A DNA stretch of 64,000 nt from a virus. Shown here piece after piece: positions 6,836 through 64,000 of this stretch (its first letter is position 1; every line of letters starts with the position of its first letter). Location: the IMG/VR virus record IMGVR_UViG_3300043466_001817, positions 1 through 64,000 of that record; one strand, written 5' to 3'. The notes below the pieces were generated by a model. That model had not been told where the DNA came from. It was given only the letters and a program-made list of their open reading frames with translations, and searched no databases. The position numbers and the translations under genes are program-made.

Positions 6836-6838
6836 AAA

Positions 6839-47408: not shown

Positions 47409-47762
47409 ATGAGTGAAACACAACATGAAGTCGGAATCAGACCTTGGGGATCATACAAAGTTTTGGCAGAAGAACCCAAGACAAAAGTAAAAATTATTAC
47501 CGTAAAGCCAAAGGGCAAGTTGAGCCTGCAATATCACCACTACCGCCAAGAACATTGGTATGTGGTTCAGGGGAAAGGTAAACTCACCCTCGGCAACTCT
47601 TTCTGGACTCTCAATCCCGGAGATCATGCGGACATCCCCCTCGGAATGCAACACAGGATTGAAAATATTGGTGAAGAAGATTTAATTTTTGTAGAAGTTC
47701 AAACCGGTCAAAGTTTTGATGAGAATGATATTGTAAGAGTTGAAGATGATTATGGTAGATAA
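47409..47762 (+). CDS. Cupin, mannose-6-phosphate isomerase type II C-terminal domain
   Basis: RPWGSY, LSLQYHHYRQEHW and HRIEN...EVQTG...ENDIVRVEDDYGR motifs. Confidence 0.92.
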   Translation: MSETQHEVGIRPWGSYKVLAEEPKTKVKIITVKPKGKLSLQYHHYRQEHWYVVQGKGKLTLGNSFWTLNPGDHADIPLGMQHRIENIGEEDLIFVEVQTGQSFDENDIVRVEDDYGR

Positions 47763-47770
47763 ATAATGGT

Positions 47771-49864
47771 ATGCTGAGATTCAAATCATACCTAGTCGAA
47801 GACTTTGACGTACAAATTTTAATTCTTGAAGGAAAAGCCCAACACCAAGTTGTTAAACAGTTTGGGCCAAAAATTTTAGAACTAATGCAAAGAGATCAGG
47901 GGAGACTCGGTGAGGCTGGCGATCTTCCAGGAACTTTGCATTATGAAAAAATCAAAGATCAAGAAGGACATGGAACACCAGAACACATGTCCAATTACAT
48001 TTTAAAGCACATGGGGATTCCCGAAGCCCCAAGTTATTTGAATATCAGCAAACCAGAAGATGCAAATACTTGGAATCAGCATGTAAATTGGATGTTGACA
48101 AGATATGCTCAAGGCGGACAAGGAGTTGGTAAGGGTGGTATTCAAAGATTAGAAGATATTCAATATAGAGCATTACCAGCATTGGCCAAATTTCACAAAT
48201 TGACCAAAGAAGGAAAATTAAATGCATCTTCTTTGGCAAAGTGGAAGCATTTGACTGACATGGAAGATGCTTTGCAAAATGCAGATCCATTGAATGCAGA
48301 AGGCGTAGATCCAGATGAATACACAGTTCATGGTGAAAATGAGCATTGGACGGTTGTAACTCCACATACGGCAGAAGCAGCATGTTCATTGGGCCACGGA
48401 ACAAACTGGTGTACTACATCGGGGGCTTTTGAGCAATATAATGAACAGGGCCCATTACACATTGCAATTCCAAAGAAACCATCACATAAAAATGAGAAAT
48501 ATCAATTACATATAGAATCAAATCAATTCATGGATGAAGGTGATGAGCCAGTTTCAAAAGAACAGTTCTTGAATACACATAAATCAAGACCATTCCCAAC
48601 AAGTATTTCTGCACCTGCAAAAACTAAGTTTAATCTTTCTGCAGAACATTTCAATGAAGAAGAAATGGATCATATACTTAAAACAAACACTACAGCGGCA
48701 CTTCGCATTGGTCTAGGCGAACATATTAGCAAACCACGTGTAATGGAATACTTAAAAACTTCAAGACCTCGTGATATTGATAATGTAGCAAGAGTACTTA
48801 GTCAAACAAAACATATTCAAAAAGAAGATGTTGATTATATTTTCAATAATTTTAAAGGACATCACTCTGGTACAGGCGAATTTGGCCCACATGTCATTAA
48901 TGCATTTTTGGGTAAAAACTTTGTTGATATGCTTCCTGGTCACAAAGGAAAAACAAATTATGATGAGCATATTACACCAGAACATTTAAAAAATGCATAT
49001 GAGTATTCAATATCTAAAGATGCAGATTTTGAAACTGCAAAGAAACTTAAAGAAAAAATAACAAGTCACCCAAATGTACCAGAAGATGTTCTTGAACATG
49101 CTCGTTCAATTAGAAACCATTCAGCATATGCAAATCCAAGAACTACAGCAAAACAAATTGAACAATTTTTTGAAGAAGAAAAAGCAAATCCAAATAAAGA
49201 AACTCATAATGCTAGAAATACAATGGTTTTACAAAATGCTGTAAGAAATCCAAATTTCCCACAGCATATGTTTGAATCAATAATTAATTACGACCAACTT
49301 CCAAAGAGACAATCGACTTATTCATTACGATTTGATAATCGTAATGAATACGATTTTCATGGAATAAATGTATTCGATGCAGAAATGAAACAATTAAGAA
49401 ATTCTGTACTTCAAAATCCTTCATTGTCGGATAAACACATACACAAAGTTCTTGATACTCCATCATTGTTTAAAACTGAAAACGAGCATGCAGATGCACT
49501 GAGATCAATAATTTTTAATCCTTCAGCGACACCAAAACATATAGTAAAAGCAATAGAAACCGCACCAGTGGATATAAACAGTTCTTCAGTTAAAAAGAAC
49601 AAACACAGTTTTACTCATACTGTTCTTGACAAATACAATGCCCAAAGTAAAGGAGTCGTTCCTGAAGAAGTTTTTGATGCTCTTGTACGAAATGAAACTG
49701 GGATGTATGGAACTCTTGGTTCTTTAATAAAACACAGTCAATTTACTGATAAACATGCTGATGAATTGATGAAAAAATTTGAAGGAAATCAATTTGTTCA
49801 AGATGAAATTATCAAACAAATGAATTCAAAAAAACAGCAGCCAATAACCCCGAGCCAATACTGA
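47771..49864 (+). CDS. Large putative internal head protein
   Basis: MLRFKSYLVE N-terminus; P.T.EAACSLG.GTNWCT motif; NPNxP/LRV-like repeats; ends ITPSQY. Confidence 0.75.
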   Translation: MLRFKSYLVEDFDVQILILEGKAQHQVVKQFGPKILELMQRDQGRLGEAGDLPGTLHYEKIKDQEGHGTPEHMSNYILKHMGIPEAPSYLNISKPEDANTWNQHVNWMLTRYAQGGQGVGKGGIQRLEDIQYRALPALAKFHKLTKEGKLNASSLAKWKHLTDMEDALQNADPLNAEGVDPDEYTVHGENEHWTVVTPHTAEAACSLGHGTNWCTTSGAFEQYNEQGPLHIAIPKKPSHKNEKYQLHIESNQFMDEGDEPVSKEQFLNTHKSRPFPTSISAPAKTKFNLSAEHFNEEEMDHILKTNTTAALRIGLGEHISKPRVMEYLKTSRPRDIDNVARVLSQTKHIQKEDVDYIFNNFKGHHSGTGEFGPHVINAFLGKNFVDMLPGHKGKTNYDEHITPEHLKNAYEYSISKDADFETAKKLKEKITSHPNVPEDVLEHARSIRNHSAYANPRTTAKQIEQFFEEEKANPNKETHNARNTMVLQNAVRNPNFPQHMFESIINYDQLPKRQSTYSLRFDNRNEYDFHGINVFDAEMKQLRNSVLQNPSLSDKHIHKVLDTPSLFKTENEHADALRSIIFNPSATPKHIVKAIETAPVDINSSSVKKNKHSFTHTVLDKYNAQSKGVVPEEVFDALVRNETGMYGTLGSLIKHSQFTDKHADELMKKFEGNQFVQDEIIKQMNSKKQQPITPSQY

Positions 49865-49865
49865 T

Positions 49866-50378
49866 ATGAAAAATTTTAAACAATTTATCATCGAAGCCAA
49901 CGAACTGGCAAGAATCGAACACAAAAAATCGCCAGCTCACCACTCACACCCAATGGGTCAATTTTTGCAATTCATGCGTGATGAACTTCCAAACATTCAA
50001 GTGGATGATTCTGTAGCGCATGGAATGTACAAGAAAGAATTGGATTCTTATCTTGATACATTGATGGGAGAAGATCCAAAACATTTTGATAATCTTCACA
50101 AGGAACTCACCACCGACGAAGAAGATGGAAGCACCAGAAGAAGAGATTTGTTTGATGTTCTTCTCCATGTTACTGGAGAGGCAAAGGAAAGAGCATATAA
50201 AAAACTTGTTCAAGTACACAACCCAAGAGCATGGGAGACTCATCTTGATGATTTAAACGATGTCAGAGAAAGAGTCAAGAACCACATTGACGAGAAGGCT
50301 TCGGCAATGATAAAGTCAAGAACAAAAGATAATCCAAAATTCAGTCATATCGAATCTACAACCGATATAGAAATTTGA
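49866..50378 (+). CDS. Putative internal protein with capsid-targeting sequence
   Basis: MKNFKQFIIE N-terminus. Confidence 0.75.
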   Translation: MKNFKQFIIEANELARIEHKKSPAHHSHPMGQFLQFMRDELPNIQVDDSVAHGMYKKELDSYLDTLMGEDPKHFDNLHKELTTDEEDGSTRRRDLFDVLLHVTGEAKERAYKKLVQVHNPRAWETHLDDLNDVRERVKNHIDEKASAMIKSRTKDNPKFSHIESTTDIEI

Positions 50379-50385
50379 GGATAAC

Positions 50386-51024
50386 ATGAAAAGTTTTAAA
50401 CAATTTCTAACTGAAGAAGCAGAAGAATCTTTTGATGGTGGAAAGCCATTCAAAAGCAGAATCATTCGCAGACCAACAGCACAATCAATAGACCCGGCTT
50501 TCAGAGCCCTTGATCTATCGACTGAATATGCAAATTTTCCATCTGACCAATCGGCTACCGAGAGATATGTCAATGTAGCCAAAGAAATTCATAAACTTGG
50601 GTCAAGTGAAAATAAAAATGAAAGAGAATATTACAACTGGTGGATGGATGTTGTTGAAGATCCAGGATTAAGGAACAGGGACAAAATCAGAGAATTAAGA
50701 AAAATTTCTGGATATTTGGTAGCAGCCAAGCGCGGAGAACTGTTCCCAGCAACAATCACACAGGACGCAACAGAGTTGAAACCAAGAAAATTAAACTTAC
50801 CCACAACCCTTTTCAAAGATCCAGAACAAAGAAAGAAGCCGGGTGGAAAATTAGTTCCTCTTTCTGGCGAAGCAGAGGAACTTCACACAGCATTGGGTAA
50901 CATACCCCATTACAGAGAAGTTCTTGAAAGACCAGAGCAAACCACCATCATTCCATCAGCATCGGTCAAGAGCAAAATTTTGGATATTACCAGACCATTC
51001 CATGTAACCCCAAGCCATTATTGA
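50386..51024 (+). CDS. Putative internal protein with capsid-targeting sequence
   Basis: MKSFKQFLTE N-terminus; ends VTPSHY. Confidence 0.75.
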   Translation: MKSFKQFLTEEAEESFDGGKPFKSRIIRRPTAQSIDPAFRALDLSTEYANFPSDQSATERYVNVAKEIHKLGSSENKNEREYYNWWMDVVEDPGLRNRDKIRELRKISGYLVAAKRGELFPATITQDATELKPRKLNLPTTLFKDPEQRKKPGGKLVPLSGEAEELHTALGNIPHYREVLERPEQTTIIPSASVKSKILDITRPFHVTPSHY

Positions 51025-51025
51025 T

Positions 51026-51505
51026 ATGAAAAATTTTAAACAATTTTTAGCAGAGAGAAATTTTAGCCCGACCGACAACGATGAAGTAAGCGATGTGGAT
51101 TTCTATGGGGAACACACAAAATTATCCCCTGAAGATTACGGAAATTTTATCAAATCTTTGACTGATAAGTTTGCTACGATAGAAAAAGATTTCAATGATT
51201 CTCCCCTTTCCCGTGAAGATTATGATTATCTACGTGATATGCAGGGGGGACACCAAAGAGAACTTGATTACCACATAACAAACCCACATATCACGGATGA
51301 ACATTTACATCATGCCGTTCCTCATTTGTTGAATCACAATTTCAAGAGTACAGTAGAAAATTTAGATATTCCGTGGTCTGTAATGAAACCCCATGCAGAG
51401 ATGGCGATGGTGGCTTTCCCCGACAAGAAGAATATTAGAGCATTCAATGCCAGAGAAGAAATTGAAAAGGGTAAGGCTCCCTCTGTAACCCAAAGCCATT
51501 ATTGA
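51026..51505 (+). CDS. Putative internal protein with capsid-targeting sequence
   Basis: MKNFKQFLAE N-terminus; ends VTQSHY. Confidence 0.75.
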   Translation: MKNFKQFLAERNFSPTDNDEVSDVDFYGEHTKLSPEDYGNFIKSLTDKFATIEKDFNDSPLSREDYDYLRDMQGGHQRELDYHITNPHITDEHLHHAVPHLLNHNFKSTVENLDIPWSVMKPHAEMAMVAFPDKKNIRAFNAREEIEKGKAPSVTQSHY

Positions 51506-51506
51506 T

Positions 51507-51728
51507 ATGAAAAATTTTAAACAATTTATCACAGAAAATTATGATGTCTACCTAGACATGCCCCATACCAAAAAATTCAGGGCTCTTATCACAATGGTAG
51601 ACAAGGATGGGAAGGAACACAATTTTCCAATAGGATCAGATGATAATGTCAGAGAGGCAGCACATAAGACAATCAAAGGGCTATCTGACAAAGGATTCAC
51701 CCTTAAGGATGTAGAATACGAATTTTAA
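51507..51728 (+). CDS. Putative internal protein with capsid-targeting sequence
   Basis: MKNFKQFITE N-terminus. Confidence 0.75.
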   Translation: MKNFKQFITENYDVYLDMPHTKKFRALITMVDKDGKEHNFPIGSDDNVREAAHKTIKGLSDKGFTLKDVEYEF

Positions 51729-51744
51729 ACGGATAAATAACTTT

Positions 51745-52188
51745 ATGAACTACCTAACAAATTATTACAAAAATTTATGCGAACAACTAGAAATGCAACT
51801 TGCCCTATTGGAAGCCAAAGTAAAGGATTCCAAGAAGAAGAGCAAGGGCAAGAAACTTGACCCAGTAGGCAAGGAAGATGGTGACATCGACAATGATGGT
51901 GATGAGGATGAAACTGATGGATACCTAGCCAACCGTCGTAAGGCAATCGGTAAGGCAATGAAAAATAAAAAGAAAGTTGTCAAGGAAGAAACTTCAACAG
52001 GAGTAGAGGGAGACTACGAAGGGGAGATGTCAAAAGGGGAACTCCAATACACAATTCAAAATGCCCAAGAAATTTTAGATCAACTCAAGGATGATGATGA
52101 ACTAGAAGCATGGGTACAGAGCAAGATTACAAAGGCTTCTGACTATATTTCTACAGTAAAAGATTATATGGCTGGTAGGAATAAGTAA
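51745..52188 (+). CDS. Conserved T4-like phage late protein
   Basis: KLDPVGKEDGDIDNDGD.D..D.YL.NRRKAI and DYEGEM...LEAWVQSKITKA.DY motifs. Confidence 0.8.
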   Translation: MNYLTNYYKNLCEQLEMQLALLEAKVKDSKKKSKGKKLDPVGKEDGDIDNDGDEDETDGYLANRRKAIGKAMKNKKKVVKEETSTGVEGDYEGEMSKGELQYTIQNAQEILDQLKDDDELEAWVQSKITKASDYISTVKDYMAGRNK

Positions 52189-52894: not shown

Positions 52895-53025
52895 GAACAG
52901 TCCCCTAGTATACACCACAGGACCCATAAGTCAAGTAATGGCAAGGACTTACGATCCAGTGAAGACGTCCAGTTCTCTGGAGAAATGAATTAAATTTAAT
53001 ACCGTCCAGCCCGTCCCGTCCGCGA

Positions 53026-53090
53026 CTACTATCAGGGAGCGCAAATATTATGCAAAAAATCAAAGTTCCTCTGAGGAACTTTGATAGTAG
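53026..53090. repeat. Early-region palindromic element, copy 1
   Basis: CTACTATCAGG...atcaaagttcctc-t-gaggaactttgat-AGTAG. Confidence 0.92.
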
Positions 53091-53166
53091 CCGGTATGTA
53101 TACAATAGAACAACCCCCGGGCCTGGCTCTCTCCTTCCAGTCCGGGGGCGTTCCTACGGGGATTAC

Positions 53167-55269
53167 TTACTTGCAGGGCAAGCTGTAGATGGCTTCCGTC
53201 CCCCGCTTGAGGGGCTGGCCCGCCACGATGTCCACATACCGGGAGAGGAACACGCGGCTACCGCTGCGCTTCGCCATCGTCTTGACGAAGGTGTTCTTGA
53301 CCTTCGTGAAGGTTCCGCTGTCCACGATGGCATCCTCGTCCTTGACGATCTTCGGGGTCTTGACGAGGAAGTACGCATCGTACCCGTGGAAGATCTCGTC
53401 GTGGACAACGATGCAGCCGTCCTTGTACGCCTCCTTCGCAGCAGCGAACCGGGGAGAGGCGGCGAGGTTCTGATACGAACCCCTCTCCTTCGCGGCCACG
53501 CAGTACTGGTAGAAGAACGATTCGGTCAGGGCGTTGGGGCCAACCATCATCCCGACGAGGCGGGCGTTGAACTTCTCACGCAGGGAGTGCAGCATGATGC
53601 CGACGATCTCGTTGCCCAAGCACGAAGTCATCTCGCGGGAAGGCATCCGGGTGATCGTTCCCGTGATGTTGTTCTGCACCGTCAGCACCCCGTCCTGACC
53701 GACGCTGTACATGGAGTAGATATCGTCGCCCTTCGCGCCACGGATGCCGATGCCGTTGGGCGAACCGTCCGTGATGTGCATGAGCGTGGGGATCTGAATG
53801 TTGTTGGCCTTGATCCACTCCGCGACGAACTGGGACGCGATGGCGACGGCCTCCACCGTGGGCGTACCGCCCAACCGGATCGCAGCGGGCCGCTTGTTCT
53901 GAACGATGGACTCGTAGAGGTAGGCCATGACCTTCTCGCGCTTGTCCGCACCGTCCCGCGACGAGGCAATGTTGATGAGGCGGGCCTCGTTGAGCGTGAG
54001 GGTGTTCATCTGCTGTCCGACGATCTTCGGCTCAAACATCCTGCTGAAGTCGCTGTAGTACTTCGTGGGGTTCTTCTTGCGCCACTCATCGAACTTGCCG
54101 CCGTGGAACGCGGCCTGATTCACTTCGGTGTAGCCGAACACCTCAAAGGGGATCTTCGCCTTCTCGCAGAACCAAACCAACTGGCAGACCTGAAGGAAGC
54201 AGTCCGACAGAGAGTGCTGCATCGACCCGCTGAAGTCCATGAGGAACACGATGCCGTGGTTCTTGCCGTCCTGCTTGACGATCTTGGAAAGGAAGATATC
54301 GTCGTGGGTGCGGTACTGGTGGAGGCGGTCAAGGTTCAACTGGCCCGTCTGCTTGGGCCGCTCCTTGCGGATCGCGTCCGCTGCCTTGCGGCGCTCAAAC
54401 TGCATGACGAGCTGCCGAACGAACGAATCGGAGTCCTTGACGAACTGGCGGTAGCCGGTCAGATCGACCTGCGGGTACGAGGTCTGCTTCTCAAACTCGT
54501 CAAAGATGTAATCCGTGGGGACGATGGCAGCGTTGACATCCTCCAACATGGGGATGACAACCGTGGGCGAGTGAACCTTCGGGCCGGACTTCTTGCCGTG
54601 GCCCGCGATGTCAGTCTCCACGATCCCGTCCTGCATGGCTTCGGTGCCGATCGCGTCGGCCTGACCCTGCTGCTGCTCTGCCTTCTCGCGGGCAGCCTGC
54701 ATCTGCGGCGACTGGTAGATGATCTTGGCGAGGGCGATGCACTCCTCGAAAGTCTCGCAACCATCGACCGCATCCACGATGGCCTGCTCGTTCTCGTCCA
54801 TCGGAACGGTGACGAAACCGGGAACGCCCCACTTGAAGTGGATGTTCACCTTGTTGACGATGTTCGCGTCGGTCAAGTCCATCTTGGCGATGCCGAACAT
54901 ATCCAAGTCGTTGATCTCCTTGTAGCCCAAGAAGAAGTCGCGGCGGGTGCCGGGGAACTTGTCCTTCATCTTCTTCTCAATGCGGACATCCTCAATGACA
55001 TTGGCGATGCGCTGAAGCAACTCGATGTTGAACCCCTCCGCTTCGGCCTGATCGAACAGCACCTTCGACTGCTCGTAGGGAGTCCACAGGGCGTGGCTGA
55101 TCTCATGGGCGACGAGCATGGTCTGCACCGTTTCGGAAACCTTCCAGACGGGCATGACGAGGTGGCGGTTCTCAACATCGAACGACGCGGTGGCGGCGTT
55201 GGCATCGAAGGAGAACGAAATGTTTTCGGAGGCGAGGGCGCGAGCGAAGATGGAGAGAGAAGTGTTCAT
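53167..55269 (-). CDS. CobT-like metallopeptidase (HExxH) + VWA protein
   Basis: AHEISH, NVIEDVRIE, MIDAS DFSGSM, GGTP and ITDG motifs; leaderless start at 55269. Confidence 0.9.
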   Translation of the reverse strand: MNTSLSIFARALASENISFSFDANAATASFDVENRHLVMPVWKVSETVQTMLVAHEISHALWTPYEQSKVLFDQAEAEGFNIELLQRIANVIEDVRIEKKMKDKFPGTRRDFFLGYKEINDLDMFGIAKMDLTDANIVNKVNIHFKWGVPGFVTVPMDENEQAIVDAVDGCETFEECIALAKIIYQSPQMQAAREKAEQQQGQADAIGTEAMQDGIVETDIAGHGKKSGPKVHSPTVVIPMLEDVNAAIVPTDYIFDEFEKQTSYPQVDLTGYRQFVKDSDSFVRQLVMQFERRKAADAIRKERPKQTGQLNLDRLHQYRTHDDIFLSKIVKQDGKNHGIVFLMDFSGSMQHSLSDCFLQVCQLVWFCEKAKIPFEVFGYTEVNQAAFHGGKFDEWRKKNPTKYYSDFSRMFEPKIVGQQMNTLTLNEARLINIASSRDGADKREKVMAYLYESIVQNKRPAAIRLGGTPTVEAVAIASQFVAEWIKANNIQIPTLMHITDGSPNGIGIRGAKGDDIYSMYSVGQDGVLTVQNNITGTITRMPSREMTSCLGNEIVGIMLHSLREKFNARLVGMMVGPNALTESFFYQYCVAAKERGSYQNLAASPRFAAAKEAYKDGCIVVHDEIFHGYDAYFLVKTPKIVKDEDAIVDSGTFTKVKNTFVKTMAKRSGSRVFLSRYVDIVAGQPLKRGTEAIYSLPCK

Positions 55270-55365
55270 GCGCTCATTGTAGCAGGTCTGTAGGTGAATG
55301 CAACTACTAGGATCGGAAAATGGCAATTCTTTTTTGCGTCCGATAAGGGACCGGCCCCGTCCAGG

Positions 55366-55434
55366 CTACTATCAGGCCGTCAAGCAAATAACACAAAATT
55401 CTCAAAGATTCCTCAGAGGAATCTTTGATAGTAG
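55366..55434. repeat. Early-region palindromic element, copy 2
   Basis: CTACTATCAGG...tcaaagattcctc-a-gaggaatctttga-TAGTAG. Confidence 0.92.
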
Positions 55435-55494
55435 CCCCTGCCTGGAAGATCCCCTGCCCCTTTCGGAGCAGGGGATCTTGTCCTCTGAACAGCA

Positions 55495-55716
55495 TCAGAC
55501 CGTGGCCGGTGCGATCAGGGAGGTCAGGTCGTAGACCCCCTTGCTGACCGCGCTCTTGTGATCCTTCAGCACCCAAGTGGGGATGCCCTTCATGTTGATC
55601 GCCTGGGCGACGGCCAGCAGGTCGGCCTTGCTGAAGCTGTCGGTGGGGCGGTTGTGAACCTCCGCGTAGTGCTTGGCGGCGGCGACGAAACGGTTGCGCT
55701 TATTGAGGTACGGCAT
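55495..55716 (-). CDS. Small protein resembling the N-terminal domain of the adjacent AAA+ ATPase
   Basis: IPTWVLKD...KGVYDL versus LPAWLVTD...RGLYSI. Confidence 0.7.
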   Translation of the reverse strand: MPYLNKRNRFVAAAKHYAEVHNRPTDSFSKADLLAVAQAINMKGIPTWVLKDHKSAVSKGVYDLTSLIAPATV

Positions 55717-55734
55717 TGTCAGAATCTCCTTGTG

Positions 55735-56997
55735 TTAGGCGTTGAGAGCGTAGGAAGTGTCAGTCGGGGCAGCGACAGGCTGCGCCTTCTTGTCCGCACC
55801 CTCCGGCATCGGCAGGATGGTGGGGTCGATCTTGGTGTAGAGGTCGAAGAAAGCCTTCTGCGTGGCGGGGTCGAACCGCGTCAGCGTCAACTTGATCGCC
55901 TTCTCCTTGTCCGCGAAGATGGCGAACGCCTTGCAGACCTCCTCCAAGCGGCGGGTCGTGATGATGTCATCCAAGCCGCCCTCCTTGAAGCCCAAGCGGA
56001 TCGTTTCCGCCCACTTGGTGAGGTACTGGGCGAACTCCTTGTCCTCGCGCCCGTAAGCCTTCATCTTGCGGATGATGATGCGGGCCTCCACGGTGCGATC
56101 CGCGTAGTCCTGCTCAAACCAGTACGAGAAGCGGTCGAGGAAAGCCTCGTTCATCACTCGCGTCCCGACGAAGCGGTCGGACTCGCCCTTGCCCTTCGTG
56201 TTGGCGGTGGCGACGGCGTTGAAGCCGACAGACGGGCGGACATACTGCCCGATCTTCTTGAGGTAGATGCCCTTGCCCTCAAGGACGGGCTGGAGGCACA
56301 TCATCCGCTCCGAACCCAAGTCGATCTCGTCCAACAGCAGGATGGCACCCTTCTGCATGGCCTGAACGACGGGGCCGTAGACGAACTTGGTTTCGCCGTT
56401 GACGAGGCGGAAGCCGCCCAACAGATCGTCCTCGTCGGTTTCGGAGGTGATGTTGACGCGGACGCACTCGCGGGCGTTGGCCGCGCAGATCTGCTCAATC
56501 ATCGTGGTCTTGCCGTTGCCCGACAGACCCGTGATGTAGATGGGCGCGAACTGCTTGGAGGCGAGGATGGTGGCGATGGTGTCGTAGTGGCCCCACGGAA
56601 CGAAGGTGTCGTTCTTGGAGGGAACGAGCGAGACATCGGACATGGGGAGGACGAGGTTGAAGTTGTTGGTGTTGCTGTTCATGGGCGTAATCTTATCACA
56701 AGTTTCGGTCGGAGTCAAGTCCACGGAAGGAAGATTCTCAACAATCTTTTGGGGAAATTCGAGGTTCAGGCGGGCACCGGCCACTTCGACTTCGGGGATG
56801 CTGTACAGGCCGCGACCCAGGCGACGAGCCTGATCAGTCACGAGCCAAGCGGGCAGGCACGAGTACGAGACCCGGTGCGTCTGCTTGCAGAGGTTGAGTG
56901 CGGTCAGGCACTCGTCACGGGTGAAAGAGGTGCGAAGCCCGAACGACAGGGCGAGGGATTCGAGGAAGTGCTGCTTACGAAGATCGATGCTGTTCAT
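55735..56997 (-). CDS. CobS/MoxR-like AAA+ ATPase (second in-frame start at 56682)
   Basis: GLSGNGKT, LLLDEID, ATANTKGKG and NEAFLDRF motifs. Confidence 0.93.
   Translation of the reverse strand: MNSIDLRKQHFLESLALSFGLRTSFTRDECLTALNLCKQTHRVSYSCLPAWLVTDQARRLGRGLYSIPEVEVAGARLNLEFPQKIVENLPSVDLTPTETCDKITPMNSNTNNFNLVLPMSDVSLVPSKNDTFVPWGHYDTIATILASKQFAPIYITGLSGNGKTTMIEQICAANARECVRVNITSETDEDDLLGGFRLVNGETKFVYGPVVQAMQKGAILLLDEIDLGSERMMCLQPVLEGKGIYLKKIGQYVRPSVGFNAVATANTKGKGESDRFVGTRVMNEAFLDRFSYWFEQDYADRTVEARIIIRKMKAYGREDKEFAQYLTKWAETIRLGFKEGGLDDIITTRRLEEVCKAFAIFADKEKAIKLTLTRFDPATQKAFFDLYTKIDPTILPMPEGADKKAQPVAAPTDTSYALNA
56690..56718 (-). promoter_or_regulatory. Internal sigma70 promoter within the AAA+ ORF
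   Basis: TTGACT-N17-TAAGAT, 7 nt before the in-frame ATG at 56682. Confidence 0.7.
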
Positions 56998-57110
56998 GAG
57001 AACATTGTAATCTATGAGGCGAAGATTGCAAGACCAATCTTCCATTATTCTCAAGATTGTCTCCAGGTCCGATAACCGGCCCCAGAGTCTGGTGCTGTCC
57101 GTTCTGTCCA

Positions 57111-57178
57111 CTACTATCAGGGAAATAATATAATATCTCGGAAAAAATCAAAGACCGCCTGGCGGTCTTTGATAGTAG
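57111..57178. repeat. Early-region palindromic element, copy 3
   Basis: CTACTATCAGG...atcaaagaccgcc-t-ggcggtctttgat-AGTAG. Confidence 0.92.
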
Positions 57179-57253
57179 TGGCAAATAAAAACCCCCAGCC
57201 TAGCAACTGGGGGTCGGAGGAACATCCTCCTTGAAGAAAGAAACGAACCTGAA

Positions 57254-57598
57254 TCAGCCCTTCAGGTACTCCGAAGCCGGGCCACTCTTGCAGCAGCCGG
57301 TACCATCGTTGTAGTAGGACTTCTTGCAGTCCTTGTTCTCGTTGTGGCACTTCTCCCACAGAACATCAACCTCGCGGTGCAGTTGCTCACGGGAGCCTTC
57401 CATCTCGCGCTTGAGTTCCGCAATCTTCTCGTTGCAGGAACGACCGCAGGCAAGCACCTCGTCAATTACATACCGCTCGCTGGCCTCCGTGTAGGTACGG
57501 ATGCTGCGAATCTTGTTGTCGATGTAGTTCTTGACGATCAGGCCGCAAGCAAGCACACCGAAGGCGACGGCAAAGATCAAAGCGTAGTTCTCGTTCAT
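57254..57598 (-). CDS. Single-TM coiled-coil protein
   Basis: N-terminal TM; AGGAG SD; own sigma70 promoter. Confidence 0.7.
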   Translation of the reverse strand: MNENYALIFAVAFGVLACGLIVKNYIDNKIRSIRTYTEASERYVIDEVLACGRSCNEKIAELKREMEGSREQLHREVDVLWEKCHNENKDCKKSYYNDGTGCCKSGPASEYLKG

Positions 57599-57657
57599 CT
57601 GAATCTCCTTGTTGTTGGTGGTATTATACCACCTGGTTGTGGGTTGTCAAGTCTGAA

Positions 57658-57741
57658 TAGGACGGGTGAGATTCGAACTCACGGTGCATAAAGCGGGCAA
57701 TTATAAGTCGCCTGCTGCTCTCCATCGCAGCACGCCGTCCT
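57658..57741 (-). tRNA. Atypical tRNA with TAT (Ile) anticodon
   Basis: AGGACGG/CCGTCCT acceptor stem, ggcga-ct-TAT-aa-ttgcc anticodon arm, gtgag-TTCGAAT-ctcac T-arm; 6-bp D-stem and enlarged variable region. Confidence 0.75.
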
Positions 57742-57888
57742 GTGTGAAGCCTTTTTACGGATGCTCCTTTGTCCGTGCATTCGCAGAATGCCTCTGTGCG
57801 GTTTTATGACTACCGCCAAAACTTATAATATAATCTGCATTGTGTTTCTCAATAGTGCATTGTAGCACCTCTTTGTTCTGTGTCAAGG

Positions 57889-57962
57889 CGTTTCCGGGGG
57901 GACTCGAACCCTCAACCTGCCGCTTAGAAGGCGGCTGCTCTATCCGGTTGAGCTACGGAAAC
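57889..57962 (-). tRNA. tRNA-Arg(TCT)
   Basis: gccgc-ct-TCT-aa-gcggc anticodon arm. Confidence 0.93.
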
Positions 57963-58055
57963 ATTCGGAAGGAGTACTCTACGGTCTAGGGAATCCCATT
58001 TTCCGACTTTTCGTCCTTCCTTATTGGATGAACTTGAAGAAGTCCATCTCGTTAG

Positions 58056-58140
58056 TGGGATTGGTGGGACTTGAACCCACAAGACTTTTGAGGTCGGCAG
58101 ATTTTGAGTCTGCTGCGTATGCCGATTCCGCCACAATCCC
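58056..58140 (-). tRNA. tRNA-Leu(CAA)
   Basis: gcaga-ct-CAA-aa-tctgc anticodon arm; long variable arm. Confidence 0.93.
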
Positions 58141-58155
58141 GATGCGCCCATTATA

Positions 58156-58431
58156 TCACACTATGGGCGGGTTGTCAACCCTATCTTCTAGGGAGAATTT
58201 TTCTTCAATTTCCTCGAAGAATTCCGAATTGGCTCGGACCACCTGCTCATGGAGCCGGTCAACGTTGAGGCATTGGGCTGCGTTGTCCACCTCATCGAAG
58301 TACTGATTGATCAGTTCCTTCGGCGGGTTGCCGTTGCCATGGAGAATGTGTTCCATGATGCGGTCTGCGACAATGACCACGCGGTCATAAGCCTGGAGCG
58401 AGCTGATGTAGTGCTGTTCTGAAATCTTCAT
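58156..58431 (-). CDS. Hypothetical protein
   Basis: MKISEQHY... start with AGGAGG SD. Confidence 0.65.
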   Translation of the reverse strand: MKISEQHYISSLQAYDRVVIVADRIMEHILHGNGNPPKELINQYFDEVDNAAQCLNVDRLHEQVVRANSEFFEEIEEKFSLEDRVDNPPIV

Positions 58432-58445
58432 AGTGTCCTCCTGAA

Positions 58446-58518
58446 TGCCTCCGGTGGGGTTCGAACCCACGACCAATAGATTAAAAGTCTACTGCGCTAC
58501 CAACTGCGCTACAGAGGC
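58446..58518 (-). tRNA. tRNA-Lys(TTT)
   Basis: gtaga-ct-TTT-aa-tctat anticodon arm. Confidence 0.93.
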
Positions 58519-58557
58519 GAGATGCCCATTATATCCGATGGGCGCGGTGAAGTCAAG

Positions 58558-58953
58558 TCAGTCCTTGTCGTTGTTTCCCAGTTCCTCTTCGATGTCGTTG
58601 ATGTACTCCCGCCGGTCGTGGGGGAAGTGCTTGCGCTCCAACTCGCCCGCGAACTCGTCGTAGGTCATGGACATCATGTCGCCCAAGAGCATCATGAACG
58701 CCGCGTCACCTGCCGTGACATCCTTCGGACGCTCGTTGCGCTCCTTCGCATCCGCGAGTTCCTGGGTCGCGTAGGCCATCGCAGCGGAGGCGACGAGGCG
58801 GAGCTTCTGATCCTTGAAGAAGGTCGGGTTCCGCATCACCAGTTCCACGAGGCTGTAGATCACCTCGTGGATGCTGGGCTTGAACTGCTCCATCATGGGG
58901 TGCGGCTCGTTGTTGTCGAAGAAGTTGCTGAAGTTGTTCGTCGGGTCAGGCAT
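58558..58953 (-). CDS. Hypothetical early protein
   Basis: 131-aa ORF with GC3-rich codons. Confidence 0.7.
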   Translation of the reverse strand: MPDPTNNFSNFFDNNEPHPMMEQFKPSIHEVIYSLVELVMRNPTFFKDQKLRLVASAAMAYATQELADAKERNERPKDVTAGDAAFMMLLGDMMSMTYDEFAGELERKHFPHDRREYINDIEEELGNNDKD

Positions 58954-59176
58954 TGTTGGCTTCCTTGATCTGTGCGTGAAGGTTGAGGATGAACTCGTAC
59001 TCGTCGTCGGTGGTCATGTCGGGGTCGGCCATCTTGGTCAGCATCACATACGCTGACCCCATTCGCATCACCTTCTCCGGGTCGGTGTCCCAGTCCGGGT
59101 TAGCGAAGATGAAGTCGGAGATGCTGTTCAGCAGGTCGCTGACATTGCAGGTGGTGGGCTTCTTGGGCTTGTTCAT
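58946..59176 (-). CDS. Hypothetical early protein
   Basis: TTGACA-N17-TACAAT-N6-ATG. Confidence 0.7.
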   Translation of the reverse strand: MNKPKKPTTCNVSDLLNSISDFIFANPDWDTDPEKVMRMGSAYVMLTKMADPDMTTDDEYEFILNLHAQIKEANNA

Positions 59177-59194
59177 GGTGGTATTGTACCGAAG

Positions 59195-59524
59195 TCAGAG
59201 GGGGCTGTCAAGCAGGGAATAGTCGATATTCGAAACAGAAACCTCGAGGCCCCAATGCTCCAAAGTTTTCTTCATATCGTCCACGAAAGTCAACTGGAGC
59301 ATCGGGTCGCAGTCGAAGTTGAGACAGGCGGTGATCATGCAGAACTCGTTCGCAATGTCGAACTGGAAGGTGGGGTTCTGTCCACGGGTCACGGCGTACC
59401 TATCGTCCGCAAAGTTCCATGCATGAAGGTAAGCGTTCGACATCTCCTTGAGGCGCATGGTAGCCCAAGACCGGCTCCGTGCCGTCTTGTGCATAACGAC
59501 GGTGATGTTGCTGTAGAGTGCCAT
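59195..59524 (-). CDS. Hypothetical early protein
   Basis: 109-aa ORF coupled to the upstream gene. Confidence 0.65.
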   Translation of the reverse strand: MALYSNITVVMHKTARSRSWATMRLKEMSNAYLHAWNFADDRYAVTRGQNPTFQFDIANEFCMITACLNFDCDPMLQLTFVDDMKKTLEHWGLEVSVSNIDYSLLDSPL

Positions 59525-59760
59525 CAGTCGAAGTCCTCGTCATCCACGAAGTCAGATGCGTCGAAGTCGCTCATCTCCGGGATGTCATCGTCGTGTTCGG
59601 TGTAGTCATCGTCCGCGTCGTAGAGGCCGATCATGCGGCGAGCCTCCGCTTCGCTGTAGCCTTCGGCCATCAACTCTTCGATGGCCTCCTCGTCGGTCAT
59701 CTCCTCAATGGCGTGGTCGTACTGATCGTCGGTGTTGTCGAAGTCGTTGTCAATGTCCAT
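59524..59760 (-). CDS. Extremely acidic 78-aa early protein
   Basis: MDIDNDFDNTDDQYDHAIEEMTDEE...; TTGCAT...TATACT-N6-ATG. Confidence 0.7.
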   Translation of the reverse strand: MDIDNDFDNTDDQYDHAIEEMTDEEAIEELMAEGYSEAEARRMIGLYDADDDYTEHDDDIPEMSDFDASDFVDDEDFD

Positions 59761-59854
59761 GCGCGCAGTATAGCCTATACCGGCGGGGATGCAAGCGGTA
59801 GCATCCAAGAAAACGAAATATATTTTGCGTCCCATAACGTCCAGGTGGTCCGGG

Positions 59855-59917
59855 CTACTATCAGGCGGCGGCCGGTCCTATAAGAAATCAAAAATGCCTG
59901 GGCATTTTTGATAGTAG
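59855..59917. repeat. Early-region palindromic element, copy 4
   Basis: CTACTATCAGG...atcaaaaatgcc-tg-ggcatttttgat-AGTAG. Confidence 0.92.
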
Positions 59918-60058
59918 TCAAATAAAATGCCCCACCTTGAAGAAGGTGGGGCGTGGGAGCTACCGTCCAAACTCCCGCGTTTCTCCGCACAGCGCTGTAC
60001 GGATCTTTTTTATGCCGCTTGTGGCCACACAGGGCATCCGGTTTTGATGGTTTGGGCG

Positions 60059-60292
60059 TTAGTCCTTGAACTCGCATCCCGTCACGACATAGCGAAGTCC
60101 GCCAAGCGTGAAGGTCAGGGTGAACGCGCAGAAGTACATCACGCCAGCGCAGAAGAGTCCGACTGCGTTGAGCAGCCACGAAATGTCGTTGGGGGCGAGG
60201 AATGCGTAGGTAAAGATCATCGGGAGGAACCACGCCGCAATCAGGACGAGGGCACCGATGAAACGGTCGATGTAGGAGGTGGTGAGGTTCAT
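60059..60292 (-). CDS. Small 2-TM membrane protein
   Basis: Two hydrophobic helices; TTGACA-N17-TACAAT-N6-ATG. Confidence 0.7.
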   Translation of the reverse strand: MNLTTSYIDRFIGALVLIAAWFLPMIFTYAFLAPNDISWLLNAVGLFCAGVMYFCAFTLTFTLGGLRYVVTGCEFKD

Positions 60293-60323
60293 GGGAGTAT
60301 TGTACCTGGGTTGCAGGCGAATG

Positions 60324-60623
60324 TCAAGCCCAGTTCAGCATCTTCTCCGTCTTGGGCGAGAATCCCATGATCCCGGTGATCTTGTCCTCACCGATCAGGA
60401 TCCAGTCCTTCTTGGTGATGTCGAAGGCGCAGATGTAGCCTTCGGTGGTGTGACGGAGGCCCTTCGGCAGATTGCCGCCGAGGTGACGGATGAAGGTCGC
60501 GTCCGTAGTGACCTCACGGGCAGCGGGAGTGCCGTCCTTCTTCGTGAAAGTGACCATCACGGTGTCGTTGTTGGAGAGCGAAACGCGGAGGACGGTAGCG
60601 AGAGGCAGGTCGGTGGTGTTCAT
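60324..60623 (-). CDS. WYL_2/Sm-like SH3 beta-barrel protein
   Basis: VTFTKKDGT...T.D...FDI.KKDW pattern. Confidence 0.7.
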   Translation of the reverse strand: MNTTDLPLATVLRVSLSNNDTVMVTFTKKDGTPAAREVTTDATFIRHLGGNLPKGLRHTTEGYICAFDITKKDWILIGEDKITGIMGFSPKTEKMLNWA

Positions 60624-60733
60624 GTGAGTATTGTAGCCGGTTGGGGGTGAAAGTCAAGAGGGAAAGAAAGATTTTTTGGTGGTTTCGGGAGGGGGCGGTA
60701 ACTCAACCCCCTCCCATCATGCACCACCATGAT

Positions 60734-61135
60734 TTACTGGATCAGGTCCTGCGCGGTGGGGACGCCCTGCTTCTCGAACTTCTCCGCTTCGGCCTGGAGG
60801 ATCTCGAAGAACAACTTCGGGCACTTCATCTGCAAGGCGGTGATGTTCTCACCGTTGTCCCCCGCGAGGATCGCGTCCCCGACGAGCGGCTGCTTGCAGA
60901 TGATGGAGGCGCGGGTGTTGAAGCGCGGGTTGTCGATGCACAGACCCTCCTCATCGATCCACATCATCGAATCCTCGATGTGGTTCAGCGGGACGCTGAT
61001 CGGCTGCACGAGGCGGCACGACATGATCGGGTACATCGACTCCAACGGGTTGTCGGCGTTCAGTTCCACGACGCGGACGGGCTGGTTGATGTCGGCGGGG
61101 ATCAGGATGGCGGGGATGGTGGTGATGTTCGACAC
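60734..61135 (-). CDS. DUF3846-like protein
   Basis: MWIDEEGL...FNTRAS...LVGDAILAG pattern. Confidence 0.75.
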   Translation of the reverse strand: MSNITTIPAILIPADINQPVRVVELNADNPLESMYPIMSCRLVQPISVPLNHIEDSMMWIDEEGLCIDNPRFNTRASIICKQPLVGDAILAGDNGENITALQMKCPKLFFEILQAEAEKFEKQGVPTAQDLIQ

Positions 61136-61282
61136 GGTGGTGACTCCTGCCCCTGTGGGGCAACTGGGTGATACGCGAATTGTAGCAGGTTGGCTGGCGA
61201 TTGCAAGTAGGTAGGTCGCGATTCGAAAGATTTATTTCTTTCCTCGTACCGGCCACAGGGCTCGAGCCCGTCCAGGTGGGCG

Positions 61283-61340
61283 CTACTATCAGGCGGCGTC
61301 CAATAAAATCAGAGGGCCCTAGAGGGCCCTCTGATAGTAG
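61283..61340. repeat. Early-region palindromic element, copy 5
   Basis: CTACTATCAGG...atcagagggccct-ag-agggccctctgat-AGTAG. Confidence 0.92.
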
Positions 61341-61354
61341 CCCGAGGGGCTGGC

Positions 61355-61495
61355 TCAAACTTCTCGAGCCAGTTCCCTCTTTCCCTCCCTCCGCGCCATC
61401 CGAGGGTCGCGGCTCTTCTTGCCCCAAGTCTTGGGGCGGAGCCGGATGCCTTCACGGAAAGCGTCGTGGACGAACTTGCCTGGGCGGTGCTTCAT
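61355..61495 (-). CDS. Small basic peptide (46 aa; not in the ORF track)
   Basis: MKHRPGKFVHDAFREGIRLRPKTWGKKSRDPRMARREGKRELAREV; GAGGAG SD; ATGA overlap with the upstream gene. Confidence 0.6.
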   Translation of the reverse strand: MKHRPGKFVHDAFREGIRLRPKTWGKKSRDPRMARREGKRELAREV

Positions 61496-61737
61496 CGTGT
61501 CTCCTCTAGGTCGATCAGGGCGGAATCAATCTTGATCTGAAGGCGGCGAATCGTGTCGCGCTCCGCCTTCGCTTCAGCGTAGAACGCATCATGAGCTGCG
61601 GTTTCCCGGTAGGTGTTCATTTCACGCAGCACATCCACCATAGCGGTGAACATGAAACGGGAAATAATTTCCATTTCGCGCTTCGACAATTCCACCTGCA
61701 TGGCGGGCTTGCGAATTGGCTTGAGGGTGGTGATCAT
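61492..61737 (-). CDS. Hypothetical early protein
   Basis: TTGACA...TAAGAT-N6-ATG. Confidence 0.7.
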   Translation of the reverse strand: MITTLKPIRKPAMQVELSKREMEIISRFMFTAMVDVLREMNTYRETAAHDAFYAEAKAERDTIRRLQIKIDSALIDLEETR

Positions 61738-61786
61738 GGTGGTATCTTACCTTCCTGTCCTGTCCCTGTCAATAGGGTAGGGCGGA

Positions 61787-62407
61787 TTACTCCGCCTTTC
61801 CCCTGATGATGATCCACAGAAGCGCCTGCATGTCGGCGGCGGGCATGTTCCACGAATCGGCCATGAGCCGAACGGCAGCGGCGATGGCACGGTACTCAAC
61901 GGCGCTGGGCGCATCCTTCGGCTGGCCAGCGTACTTCGACTTCGGCCCGTAGGTGAGGCCGGCAGCGCGGCACATCCAAATGTCGATCACGACCGCATCG
62001 GGGTCGCCGCCGATGGCACGGGCGAACGCGTTCGTCTTCGGCCCGCGCAGGCCGTCGAAGCCTTCGCGCTGGCAACGGTCCGCAGCGTCCAGCGCCGAAC
62101 GCAGGCCCGCAGGGCGCTGGCCCATAGCGTACTCGGCGGCCTTGCGCTTGTTGAGCGCCCAAGTAACGCGGGGCGAGAATGCCGACACGACGCTAGCGGA
62201 CACTTCGAGCGTCCACGACGGCGCGATGGTGCAGAGCGATTCCGCGAACGCGTTCGCGTCGCAGTACCATGTGCCCGCCCGCTTGATGTCGGCGGGCGTG
62301 GCCGACGCCAGCAGGGTACGGAAGCGGCCTTCGGCCTCAACGCGGACGGCGGACATGCGGGCGAGGGTAGCGGCGGACGGCTGACGGGTGGTGGTGGTGG
62401 TGATCAT
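61787..62407 (-). CDS. Conserved phage protein with HhH-glycosylase-like motifs (DUF7178-like)
   Basis: G..WY, SAFSPRVTW..N, GPKT.AF, VVIDIWM.RA and MQA..W motifs. Confidence 0.65.
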   Translation of the reverse strand: MITTTTTRQPSAATLARMSAVRVEAEGRFRTLLASATPADIKRAGTWYCDANAFAESLCTIAPSWTLEVSASVVSAFSPRVTWALNKRKAAEYAMGQRPAGLRSALDAADRCQREGFDGLRGPKTNAFARAIGGDPDAVVIDIWMCRAAGLTYGPKSKYAGQPKDAPSAVEYRAIAAAVRLMADSWNMPAADMQALLWIIIRGKAE

Positions 62408-62517
62408 GCGGTAATTGTAACCGAATGGCTACAGAATGCAATAGGGTAGCCCGCTGAAACGCAAAGAATAATTATTCATCGCGGTGCATAGTTATGCAGG
62501 GCGTCCAGGTCGTCCGG

Positions 62518-62570
62518 CTACTATCAGGCCGTCCAATAAAATCAAGATCGCCGGGCGATCTTGATAGTAG
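62518..62570. repeat. Early-region palindromic element, copy 6
   Basis: CTACTATCAGG...atcaagatcgcc-g-ggcgatcttgat-AGTAG. Confidence 0.92.
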
Positions 62571-62642
62571 CCCACAAACAACCTAGCCCCGAGCTAATCG
62601 GGGCAGGGACGAATCCTCTTCGGTTGTAAGAGCACCACCTCT

Positions 62643-62909
62643 TTAGTCTGTGGCCGGTGCGAGTGCCGCCTCCTGTCCGACGCGGATTCCTGCGCGGAAT
62701 GCGTGGATCAGTTCCAGCAGTTCCCGCTTGCTGCGGTAGCCGGGGAAGATGGCGATGCAGGCTCCGTGGGGGCCGACGAGTTGCTGTAGTTGCCATCCGC
62801 CGTATGCGCCCTGGAGGTAGTACGCACCTGGCGTGGCAGCGGTCGCCCCGACGAGTTGGTTCAGGACGCGGGTGGCGGCTTCAAGGTCGCGGATCGTGGT
62901 GTGCTTCAT
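62643..62909 (-). CDS. Hypothetical early protein
   Basis: Y.L.GAYGGWQL...GYRSKREL motif; leaderless start. Confidence 0.7.
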   Translation of the reverse strand: MKHTTIRDLEAATRVLNQLVGATAATPGAYYLQGAYGGWQLQQLVGPHGACIAIFPGYRSKRELLELIHAFRAGIRVGQEAALAPATD

Positions 62910-62998
62910 AGTGTGAACCTTACTGTATCGGGGGGCGGGAATCAAGGGGGCAGGAAAGATTTTTTACTTTCTTTCCTGCCCCCCACCGGGGGCTTGGG

Positions 62999-63403
62999 TT
63001 AGATGGTCACGGAGCGGAGGGGGCGCGTCGGGGCGCGGTCGGCCTGCTTCGAGGCCGTGTCGCGTCCGTCGATCCAGTTAGCCGCAGCGAGGAGGCCGTA
63101 GGCGACGGCCCGCATCTCGTTCGCGGTGCAGGAGCAGCCCGCCCGCTCATCGAAGGCACCGAAGAGGTTGAACGACGCCATCCGGTGGTTGGGCGACGAG
63201 AGGACGCGGACGGCGTAGGGGCCGACCGGGATCATGAACGCCGCAGCCGACTCGTGGTCGAAGCGGATGCGGGTGTAGTTGCTGCGGTTGCTGATCGTGC
63301 AGTCGCTGATGCGGTTCTCGCGCTCGTTGCTGCGGAGGTTGTCAACGGAGCGCGACGGGCTGAACACGATGTCGGTGGCGCAGGAGAAGGTGGTGGTGGT
63401 CAT
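62999..63403 (-). CDS. Hypothetical early protein
   Basis: MTTTTFSC... start with AGGAG SD. Confidence 0.65.
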   Translation of the reverse strand: MTTTTFSCATDIVFSPSRSVDNLRSNERENRISDCTISNRSNYTRIRFDHESAAAFMIPVGPYAVRVLSSPNHRMASFNLFGAFDERAGCSCTANEMRAVAYGLLAAANWIDGRDTASKQADRAPTRPLRSVTI

Positions 63404-63435
63404 GGTAGATGCTCCTAGTGAGAGGGGTGCGATTG

Positions 63436-63627
63436 TCAAGCGGTAACGCAAGATTCTGCGCGAAACTTTGCCTTGCTCCAGCGCGGGTCGGCATCGTACC
63501 CGTTGGTGAGGAGCAGGTAGCGGAACTCCTCAATGGCCTGGGCCTTGGAGTCAGCGCGAACCGTGGTGGAGTGAATGATGCCGCCGAGGGTGCAGGTGAC
63601 GCGGAAGAGTTGGGTGGTGCTGTTCAT
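63436..63627 (-). CDS. Hypothetical early protein
   Basis: TTGACT...TACCAT-N6-ATG. Confidence 0.65.
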   Translation of the reverse strand: MNSTTQLFRVTCTLGGIIHSTTVRADSKAQAIEEFRYLLLTNGYDADPRWSKAKFRAESCVTA

Positions 63628-63653
63628 GCGTGTATGGTAGCGAATCTACAATG

Positions 63654-63744
63654 GAAGTCAATACCCTTTCTCAAATATTTCTCGAGCGCCCCCAGGCGAC
63701 CGATAACCTACCGGCAGAAATATTTGAGAAAGGGTATTGACTTC
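63654..63744. promoter_or_regulatory. Back-to-back sigma70 promoters built from a perfect 29-bp inverted repeat
   Basis: 63654-63682 is the exact reverse complement of 63716-63744 (agaaatatttgagaaagggtaTTGACTtc); both promoters have a gcTACCAT -10. Confidence 0.9.
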
Positions 63745-63770
63745 GATAGCAAACTTGCTACCATTAGCGC

Positions 63771-63989
63771 ATGGACACCACCCACACCGATTCGCCCGAC
63801 AACTTCCCCTGCCAGTGCCACCTGTCGAAGTACGCCTACGAGGACGCGCTCTGCCCCGAGTGCGAGGAGCGGGAGCGGCAGCTCGAAGCCCAGGTGGAGG
63901 CCGAAGCGCTGCGCGCCGAGGCCATGGAGGAGAGGGACTGGGACGCCGATAACGATTGGCTCGCCTCAGCGGGCTGGGGCGAGATGTGA
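63771..63989 (+). CDS. Small acidic Cys-containing early protein
   Basis: CQC...CPEC and acidic tail ending DNDWLASAGWGEM; leaderless start. Confidence 0.7.
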   Translation: MDTTHTDSPDNFPCQCHLSKYAYEDALCPECEERERQLEAQVEAEALRAEAMEERDWDADNDWLASAGWGEM

Positions 63990-64000
63990 GCCCCAAATAA

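Follow-up and report, generated by a model that had tools for sequence, protein, structure and literature searches.

A tandem array of candidate capsid-targeted genes joined by a coding junction repeat in an uncultured T4-like virus

The virus record IMGVR_UViG_3300043466_001817 of the IMG/VR database encodes, at positions 47771-51728, an array of five tandem open reading frames (ORFs) with unrelated bodies that all start with the same type of ten-residue leader and, at three of the internal borders, are joined by a direct repeat that is itself translated. This locus is probably an operon of the T4 internal protein type, in which diverse cargo genes carry a T4-like capsid-targeting tag and are exchanged as cassettes by homologous recombination at the common leader and junction. 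The window analyzed here consists of the first 64 kb (64,000 nt) of the record, which is 94,095 bp long and about 50% complete; positions refer to the window unless the whole record (denoted G000) is indicated.

In the mechanism that we propose, a late-type promoter at the first ATG would drive the expression of five translationally coupled genes. By analogy with T4, the leader would dock each protein to the prohead scaffolding core, and a T4-type (S77) prohead protease would remove it after Glu10; having been docked in this way and then relieved of the leader, the mature cargo would stay in the head and leave it together with the DNA. Homologous recombination in the common leader would cause gain, loss and reordering of cassettes, and in this lineage the patch of homology would be a 52-nt junction that consists of the last six codons of the preceding gene, the stop-start overlap and the leader. 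Packaging, tag cleavage and injection of the products, as well as recombination as the actual mechanism of exchange, are what we infer from the observations described below.

Organization of the array and the junction repeat

The array and its immediate surroundings include the following features, all on the plus strand:

47758-47765, plus strand: late-promoter-like GATAAATA box, 5 nt before the first ATG of the array; predicted leaderless or near-leaderless start
47771-49864, plus strand: cassette 1, 697 amino acids (aa); leader, second LxE site near residue 20, ITPSQY tail
49843-49894, plus strand: junction repeat copy 1; tail codons, TGA-T-ATG and leader; 81% identity to the reference copy
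49866-50378, plus strand: cassette 2, 170 aa; ORFan without a tail, followed by a GAGGA Shine-Dalgarno-like motif and a 7-nt spacer
50386-51024, plus strand: cassette 3, 212 aa; ORFan, VTPSHY tail
51003-51054, plus strand: junction repeat copy 2 (reference copy)
51026-51505, plus strand: cassette 4, 159 aa; VTQSHY tail; missing in a close relative (G003, see below)
51484-51535, plus strand: junction repeat copy 3; 92% identity to the reference copy
51507-51728, plus strand: cassette 5, 73 aa; small predicted fold
51732-52188, plus strand: GATAAATA-N5-ATG start and 147-aa gene, the conserved distal flank of the array

The leaders of all five cassettes conform to the consensus M-(K/L)-x-F-K-x-(F/Y)-(I/L)-x-E, and three of the five proteins end with (I/V)T(P/Q)S(H/Q)Y, which is followed by TGA-T-ATG. 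An earlier, sequence-only reading of this DNA had described five tandem genes with common leaders, three common tails and apparently unrelated bodies, along with a junction repeat of approximately 43 bp (49844, 51004 and 51485). The ORF list and BLASTP bear out this description, and the repeat can now be delineated as a 52-nt direct repeat (starting at 49843, 51003 and 51484; 81-92% identity) that covers six last codons, TGA-T-ATG and the leader of the next gene. Copies 2 and 3 are the most similar, with one mismatch over 44 nt and 35 nt exactly in common, and a 31-nt leader repeat is found at all four internal starts. The junction between the 170-aa and 212-aa genes deviates from the others in that it lacks the tail and contains the GAGGA motif and the 7-nt spacer; most of the junctions contain no Shine-Dalgarno sequence. 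Translational coupling of the cassettes, which had also been proposed from the sequence, is evident from the TGA-T-ATG arrangement of the junctions. The junction repeat contains neither a stem-loop nor a match to a promoter or terminator, and scans for sigma-70 promoters and terminators over the array yielded only background-level signals.

The bodies of the cassettes are not related to each other: the best match in the all-against-all BLASTP comparison has E=0.005 and corresponds to a single short NPxxxxxH-type repeat unit that is common to the 159-aa and 697-aa proteins. An origin of the five genes as diverged paralogues by tandem duplication, which the sequence-only reading had named as an outcome that would speak against it, is highly improbable. 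Such an origin would account for the common N-termini, the three common C-termini and the repeat unit of cassettes 1 and 4, but BLASTP detects no similarity between the bodies, the lengths of the proteins range from 73 to 697 aa, and each cassette has its own, separate set of homologues. The unrelated bodies effectively refute a paralogous family.

A loose version of the leader pattern matches 7 ORF starts in the 94-kb genome, compared to a mean of 0.25 in 20 shuffled sequences. The two matches outside the window are a 67-aa gene and a 292-aa protein that combines a T4-type lysozyme with LysM (positions 72927-73805 of the whole record, minus strand; L006:8927-9805) and in which the leader is immediately followed by a Gly/Ala/Ser-rich stretch that is weakly hydrophobic. 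The conserved codons for K, F and Q do not differ among the four internal leaders at any of their 20 synonymous sites (20/20; P ~2e-4 given the codon usage of the bodies).

The leader and the T4 capsid-targeting sequence

Mutagenesis of the T4 tag has assigned a targeting role to residues 4 and 7 and a processing role to residues 8 and 10 (PMC9026906). All five leaders of the array have F in position 4, F or Y in position 7, I or L in position 8 and E in position 10; among these, E in position 10 was fixed by the search pattern and I, L, V or M in position 8 was required by the filter, so that these two positions are not independent observations. In the translated T4 record (NC_000866), IPII and IPIII have one common 10-residue tag whereas the tag of IPI is 19 residues long; the first seven residues of IPI differ in one position from the leader of the lysozyme-LysM gene of the present genome. 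The leader of cassette 1 retains the T4 key residues through entirely different codons, which implies that the constraint acts on the leader peptide. These comparisons appear to provide good support for homology between the leader and the T4 capsid-targeting sequence. Thus, the link to the T4 tag that the sequence-only reading had drawn holds for all four positions that are functional in T4, and it is based on sequence and indirect evidence.

Part of this indirect evidence comes from cyanophages. The NMNAT of cyanophage S-SCSM1 (ORF91) and its homologue in S-SSM7 open with the same leader, and ORF91 has been detected by mass spectrometry in CsCl-purified virions (PMC9602691). Enzymes of this kind recur in cyanophage virions, and the authors offered no explanation for their presence (PMC9602691). 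There are exactly two leader-pattern genes in S-SCSM1 (L102/L261), namely, ORF91 and the 106-aa ORF30; the latter adjoins the gene for the large terminase and belongs to the largest cluster of leader proteins in IMG/VR (48 members among the matches listed). Furthermore, Peptidase_S77 is encoded on three leader-carrying contigs (G004, G008 and G006, a complete 168.5-kb genome), and in G004 the leader is also present on the gene directly upstream of the protease, i.e., in the position of the prohead core in T4. In the open literature, we found no paper that connects the tag with T4-like phages from the environment, cyanophages included.

An alternative, which we consider unlikely, is that the common N-terminus is a translation-initiation or mRNA module with A/U-rich codons following the ATG in genes that lack a Shine-Dalgarno sequence, or else the n-region of a membrane or secretion signal, and that the genes are ordinary late accessory genes. 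Several observations agree with this possibility or weigh against capsid targeting. The identical K, F and Q codons of the four internal leaders could also stem from selection on translation initiation, and most junctions are devoid of a Shine-Dalgarno sequence. The stretch that directly follows the leader of the lysozyme-LysM protein is signal-anchor-like, so this protein could be either a cell-wall hydrolase that is packaged into the head or an endolysin with a signal anchor. ORF30 of S-SCSM1 bears the leader yet is not annotated as a virion protein. Finally, neither the head module nor the prohead protease (Peptidase_S77) nor the scaffold was found on the 94-kb, approximately 50%-complete contig. 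On the other side, cassette 1, the variant in the close relative G003 and hundreds of IMG/VR copies all keep F/Y4, F/Y7, I/L8 and E10, whereas the codons and positions 3, 5, 6 and 9 vary; the kept positions are the same four that are functional in T4. Moreover, no hydrophobic segment is present in the four cassettes that were folded or closely read, and the leader-bearing NMNAT is physically located in virions.

Arrays of leader-carrying genes in other viruses

The leader is not restricted to the locus described here. A scan of IMG/VR with a degenerate leader pattern yielded at least 120 stretches with at least 168 leader ORFs, the bodies of which form at least 80 clusters; 67 of the 80 are singletons, among the matches listed. 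Within the same set of matches, the arrays reach at least seven genes. The largest of the arrays listed (L161; IMGVR_UViG_3300025288_000189, 3442-9422, minus strand) consists of seven leader genes, six of which form an unbroken tandem run. In L161 and in two further arrays (L154 and L227), the repeats cover the leader only (65-83% identity), which indicates that the extended junction, with tail, stop, start and leader, is specific to the present lineage.

Cassette variation among related viruses

A close relative of the array is found in IMGVR_UViG_3300044949_001291 (hereinafter G003), which is 95-98% identical across the region but lacks two segments corresponding to window positions 47802-49856 and 51055-51483 (breaks at 47801/49857 and 51054/51484). 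In the alignment, the gap that removes cassette 1 extends precisely from its start codon to that of the next gene. Cassette 4 is missing as well, in this case with the crossover located within the exactly matching 35-nt core of the junction repeat; at the resulting join, the left flank is of the 212-aa gene type and the right flank is of the 73-aa gene type. This comparison is between single metagenome assemblies. In a more distant relative, with approximately 70% identity (G001), the homologue of cassette 4 is located directly upstream of the homologue of cassette 1; frameshifts in this contig may be sequencing errors. In yet another relative (G002), a different leader gene (DUF5872) precedes the conserved 147-aa flank gene.

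Mosaicism is also apparent in public protein clusters, among members with at least 90% identity. Such members show five tail variants for cassette 4, two tail variants for cassette 3 and three leader variants for cassette 2. Cassette 2 additionally occurs in three distinct upstream contexts in public data, one of which is a third, unrelated upstream sequence, and 5 contigs carry the leader variant by which the arrangement lacking cassette 1 is recognized. Distant homologues of the 159-aa and 212-aa proteins retain the leader and end before the tail, as exemplified by a 56% identical homologue of the 212-aa protein (P0007) that has the leader and no tail; accordingly, the tail belongs to the junction in this lineage rather than to the protein families. 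The variant tails and leaders, together with the identical codons, fit a scenario in which the junctions have repeatedly undergone homologous exchange or gene conversion. Comparison of array content across relatives, the check suggested in the sequence-only reading, shows that the gene content between the repeats varies among relatives, as seen in G003, in G001 and in the cluster variants. Of the swap locus postulated in that reading, the presence or absence of whole cassettes and the location of breakpoints at junctions are directly seen, whereas recombination as the mechanism is deduced from the pattern of breakpoints.

The proteins of the array might be packaged into the capsid even if the repeat were not a substrate for recombination and were kept only for the needs of the leader and the stop-start overlap; the differences between contigs would then result from unrelated illegitimate events or from collapse of the assembly at the repeat. 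We regard this explanation as improbable, although some of the data are in line with it. Assemblers that use a short k could be misled by the 35-nt exact core and, because an exact repeat of this length bounds the gap, the loss of cassette 4 in G003 could be the product of an assembly collapse. The break at cassette 1 in G003 coincides with the start codon, and the leader in G003 is several bases off both window leaders, so this gap does not represent a simple recent crossover. The leader-only repeats of L161, L154 and L227 point in the same direction. What argues against this explanation is that the tail, dispensable as it is in the distant homologues, is nevertheless common to three unrelated cassettes, and that several independent datasets show its H/Q and P/Q variants shuffled between bodies that are nearly identical. 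The leader variant on the 5 contigs and the three upstream neighbors of cassette 2 also speak for exchange at the junctions, and less than 50 bp of homology is reportedly enough for T4-type recombination (PMC2839356).

In additional searches for relatives of the array, IMG/VR scans with the 212-aa and 170-aa proteins gave a match in G003 only, a scan with the junction DNA motif retrieved G003 and otherwise chance matches, and a metagenome scan yielded one weak relative and was otherwise swamped by leader matches.

A broader interpretation can be put forward more tentatively, with a likelihood that we judge to be somewhat short of even. The leader might be a portable head-loading address that is used across environmental T4-like phages, with the present locus being a recombination-driven cassette system in which the 52-nt module serves at once as the tag, the coupling device and the patch of homology. 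If this is the case, the injected repertoire of these phages, which would include dozens of unrelated families, enzymes among them, could be read from the sequence and would be exchanged in natural populations.

Predicted cargo proteins

Searches of the five cargo proteins against Pfam and PHROGs produced no match other than a sub-threshold hit of the 170-aa protein to NleF, which was treated as noise. Sequence searches of the PDB with the cargo proteins returned nothing meaningful, and the ESM Atlas contained nothing for the 212-aa protein. For the 697-aa protein, the ESM Atlas search identified viral clusters with LRV/HEAT repeats, and this protein is not an ORFan: it contains a widespread, conserved domain (residues ~100-280, within ~90-300 at window 48038-48670) with 2,761 representative homologues, for which there is no Pfam model. 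The domain carries an invariant W-C-T motif, and the 697-aa protein itself contains C-terminal LRV/HEAT-like repeats. In many homologues of the domain, the N-terminus consists of the leader and a second LxE motif, and the fusion partners are HEAT, LRV or ankyrin repeats. The predicted fold of the conserved domain, which is of high confidence (pLDDT 88), has no Foldseek match; the best VIA-align match (Z=5.4) is confined to the helical half, and the alpha/beta half gives weak GNAT-like matches (Z ~4) that can be considered only a lead. For the 73-aa protein, the AlphaFold model (pLDDT 74) consists of a leader helix followed by a beta-beta-alpha-beta body, with no Foldseek match below E=0.3 and a weak, non-significant resemblance to small phage inhibitor proteins. 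An anti-defense role of the cargo proteins is suggested only by analogy with T4 Ip1-3.

Source genome, late-promoter-like starts and a second common N-terminus

The source record is an uncultured T4-like myovirus. It encodes T4-type DNA polymerase, replicative helicase and ribonucleotide reductase, and genes for the baseplate hub, wedge and tube are located at its far end. The genome has a guanine-plus-cytosine (GC) content of approximately 38% and contains a GC island of about 60% with sharp edges that spans window positions ~53000-64000 and extends to ~65000 of the whole record; the island includes a gene for a CobT-like peptidase and four tRNAs. The presence of the same island in G003, with 98.7% identity, speaks against a chimeric assembly. 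The upstream neighbor of the array (window 47409-47762) encodes a mannose-6-phosphate-isomerase-type cupin and has its own GATAAATA-N5-ATG-type start; an auxiliary gene of the same kind has been highlighted in cyanophage S-SCSM1.

Both the array and the 147-aa flank gene are preceded by GATAAATA, five bases and ATG. A similar layout, NATAAATA-N5-8-ATG, without a Shine-Dalgarno sequence, precedes about 20 other real ORFs of the genome, including genes of the baseplate region; examples of NATAAATA are found at window positions 40103, 40650, 47397, 47759 and 51733 and at positions 68321, 68530, 86856 and 91314 of the whole record. The GATAAATA layout resembles the late promoter of T4 and cyanophages and suggests late, leaderless expression. 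Alongside the NMNAT and the protease, this layout is the third of three independent lines of evidence that connect the leader with virions and the T4 head machinery.

The 147-aa flank gene has a different common N-terminus, together with a motif found in cyanophage virion proteins. This N-terminus is part of a second module, a repeat of approximately 60 nt that comprises GATAAATA-N5-ATG and 16 N-terminal residues starting with MNYLTNYYKNL. The module is present at window positions 51732-51790 and at ~65640-65700 of the whole record (minus strand; L006:1627-1737), on two unrelated bodies (147 and 180 aa), each immediately downstream of a capsid-tag-type gene, and three more genes with a start of this type are found in G002. 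It may represent a second class of targeting or assembly leaders.

Comparison with known systems

The T-even coliphages encode diverse internal proteins (IPs) that have only the targeting tag in common and are located in two hypervariable loci, where conserved promoter and stem-loop elements have been proposed to mediate shuffling (PMC3012670, PMC2839356, PMC12373910). As cited in PMC9026906, PMC3012670, PMC2839356 and PMC12373910, the tag and the IP loci trace to Mullaney and Black 1996 and Repoila et al. 1994. The T4 proteins Ip1-3 are injected and all inhibit GmrSD-type restriction enzymes (PMC12373910). Thus, the idea of a hypervariable locus of tagged genes, as such, is not new because it has been established for the T-even phages. 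If the tag works in uncultured T4-like phages, including the abundant marine ones, as it does in T4, a ten-residue motif would flag proteins that are carried in the capsid and delivered to the host, and the tagged proteins would become prime candidates for counter-defense and host takeover. Such a role of the tag would account for the puzzling finding of a metabolic enzyme in cyanophage virions, provide a cheap rule for effector mining and offer a natural example, complete with population variants, of payload swapping that breaks neither expression nor delivery.

The cyanophage enzyme is the case in which the same leader is experimentally associated with virions: ORF91 of S-SCSM1 is an NMNAT/cytidylyltransferase (PMC9602691). 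In contrast to the cassettes described here, this protein has an enzymatic body and is encoded by a conserved single gene that lies outside variable arrays, and the authors drew no link to a targeting tag. Much like T4 IPI, IPII and IPIII, the proteins of the array possess an N-terminal tag of 10 residues that ends in (I/L)xE and has the same key positions. Similarly to the IP loci of T-even phages, the genes are clustered in a variable locus, their bodies are unrelated and poorly conserved, and conserved DNA is found at the gene starts, where in the T-evens it is proposed to guide shuffling. The common DNA itself is different: in the T-even phages, it is an intergenic early promoter with a stem-loop, and a separate Shine-Dalgarno sequence precedes every gene, whereas the present array appears to be a single late-type operon with TGA-T-ATG overlaps, in which the common DNA is coding (tail, stop, start and leader). 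Furthermore, the array belongs to an uncultured, distant member of the T4-like viruses.

The array further resembles the promoter-stem-loop (PeSL) cassettes of RB49/phi1 and other T4-like phages, in which single genes are inserted, deleted or replaced at short conserved repeats between near-identical phages, without a dedicated recombinase (PMC2839356, PMC4122927). However, PeSLs are regulatory, non-coding elements that insulate each cassette transcriptionally, whereas the repeat described here is translated and couples translation. Being coding, and devoid of both a stem-loop and matches to promoters or terminators, the junction repeat is best viewed as an analogue of a PeSL rather than a PeSL. 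A more remote parallel can be drawn with integron cassettes and the orphan arrays of polymorphic toxins, in which a constant junction also provides interchangeable payloads with expression or delivery; this is a likeness of design only, given that the phage array lacks an integrase, an attC site and toxin-immunity pairs. What sets this locus apart is an in-frame, translationally coupled junction repeat that would double as a patch of homology, along with natural cassette polymorphism and breakpoints located at the junctions. Altogether, the array extends a mechanism known from T4 and does not represent a new kind of system.

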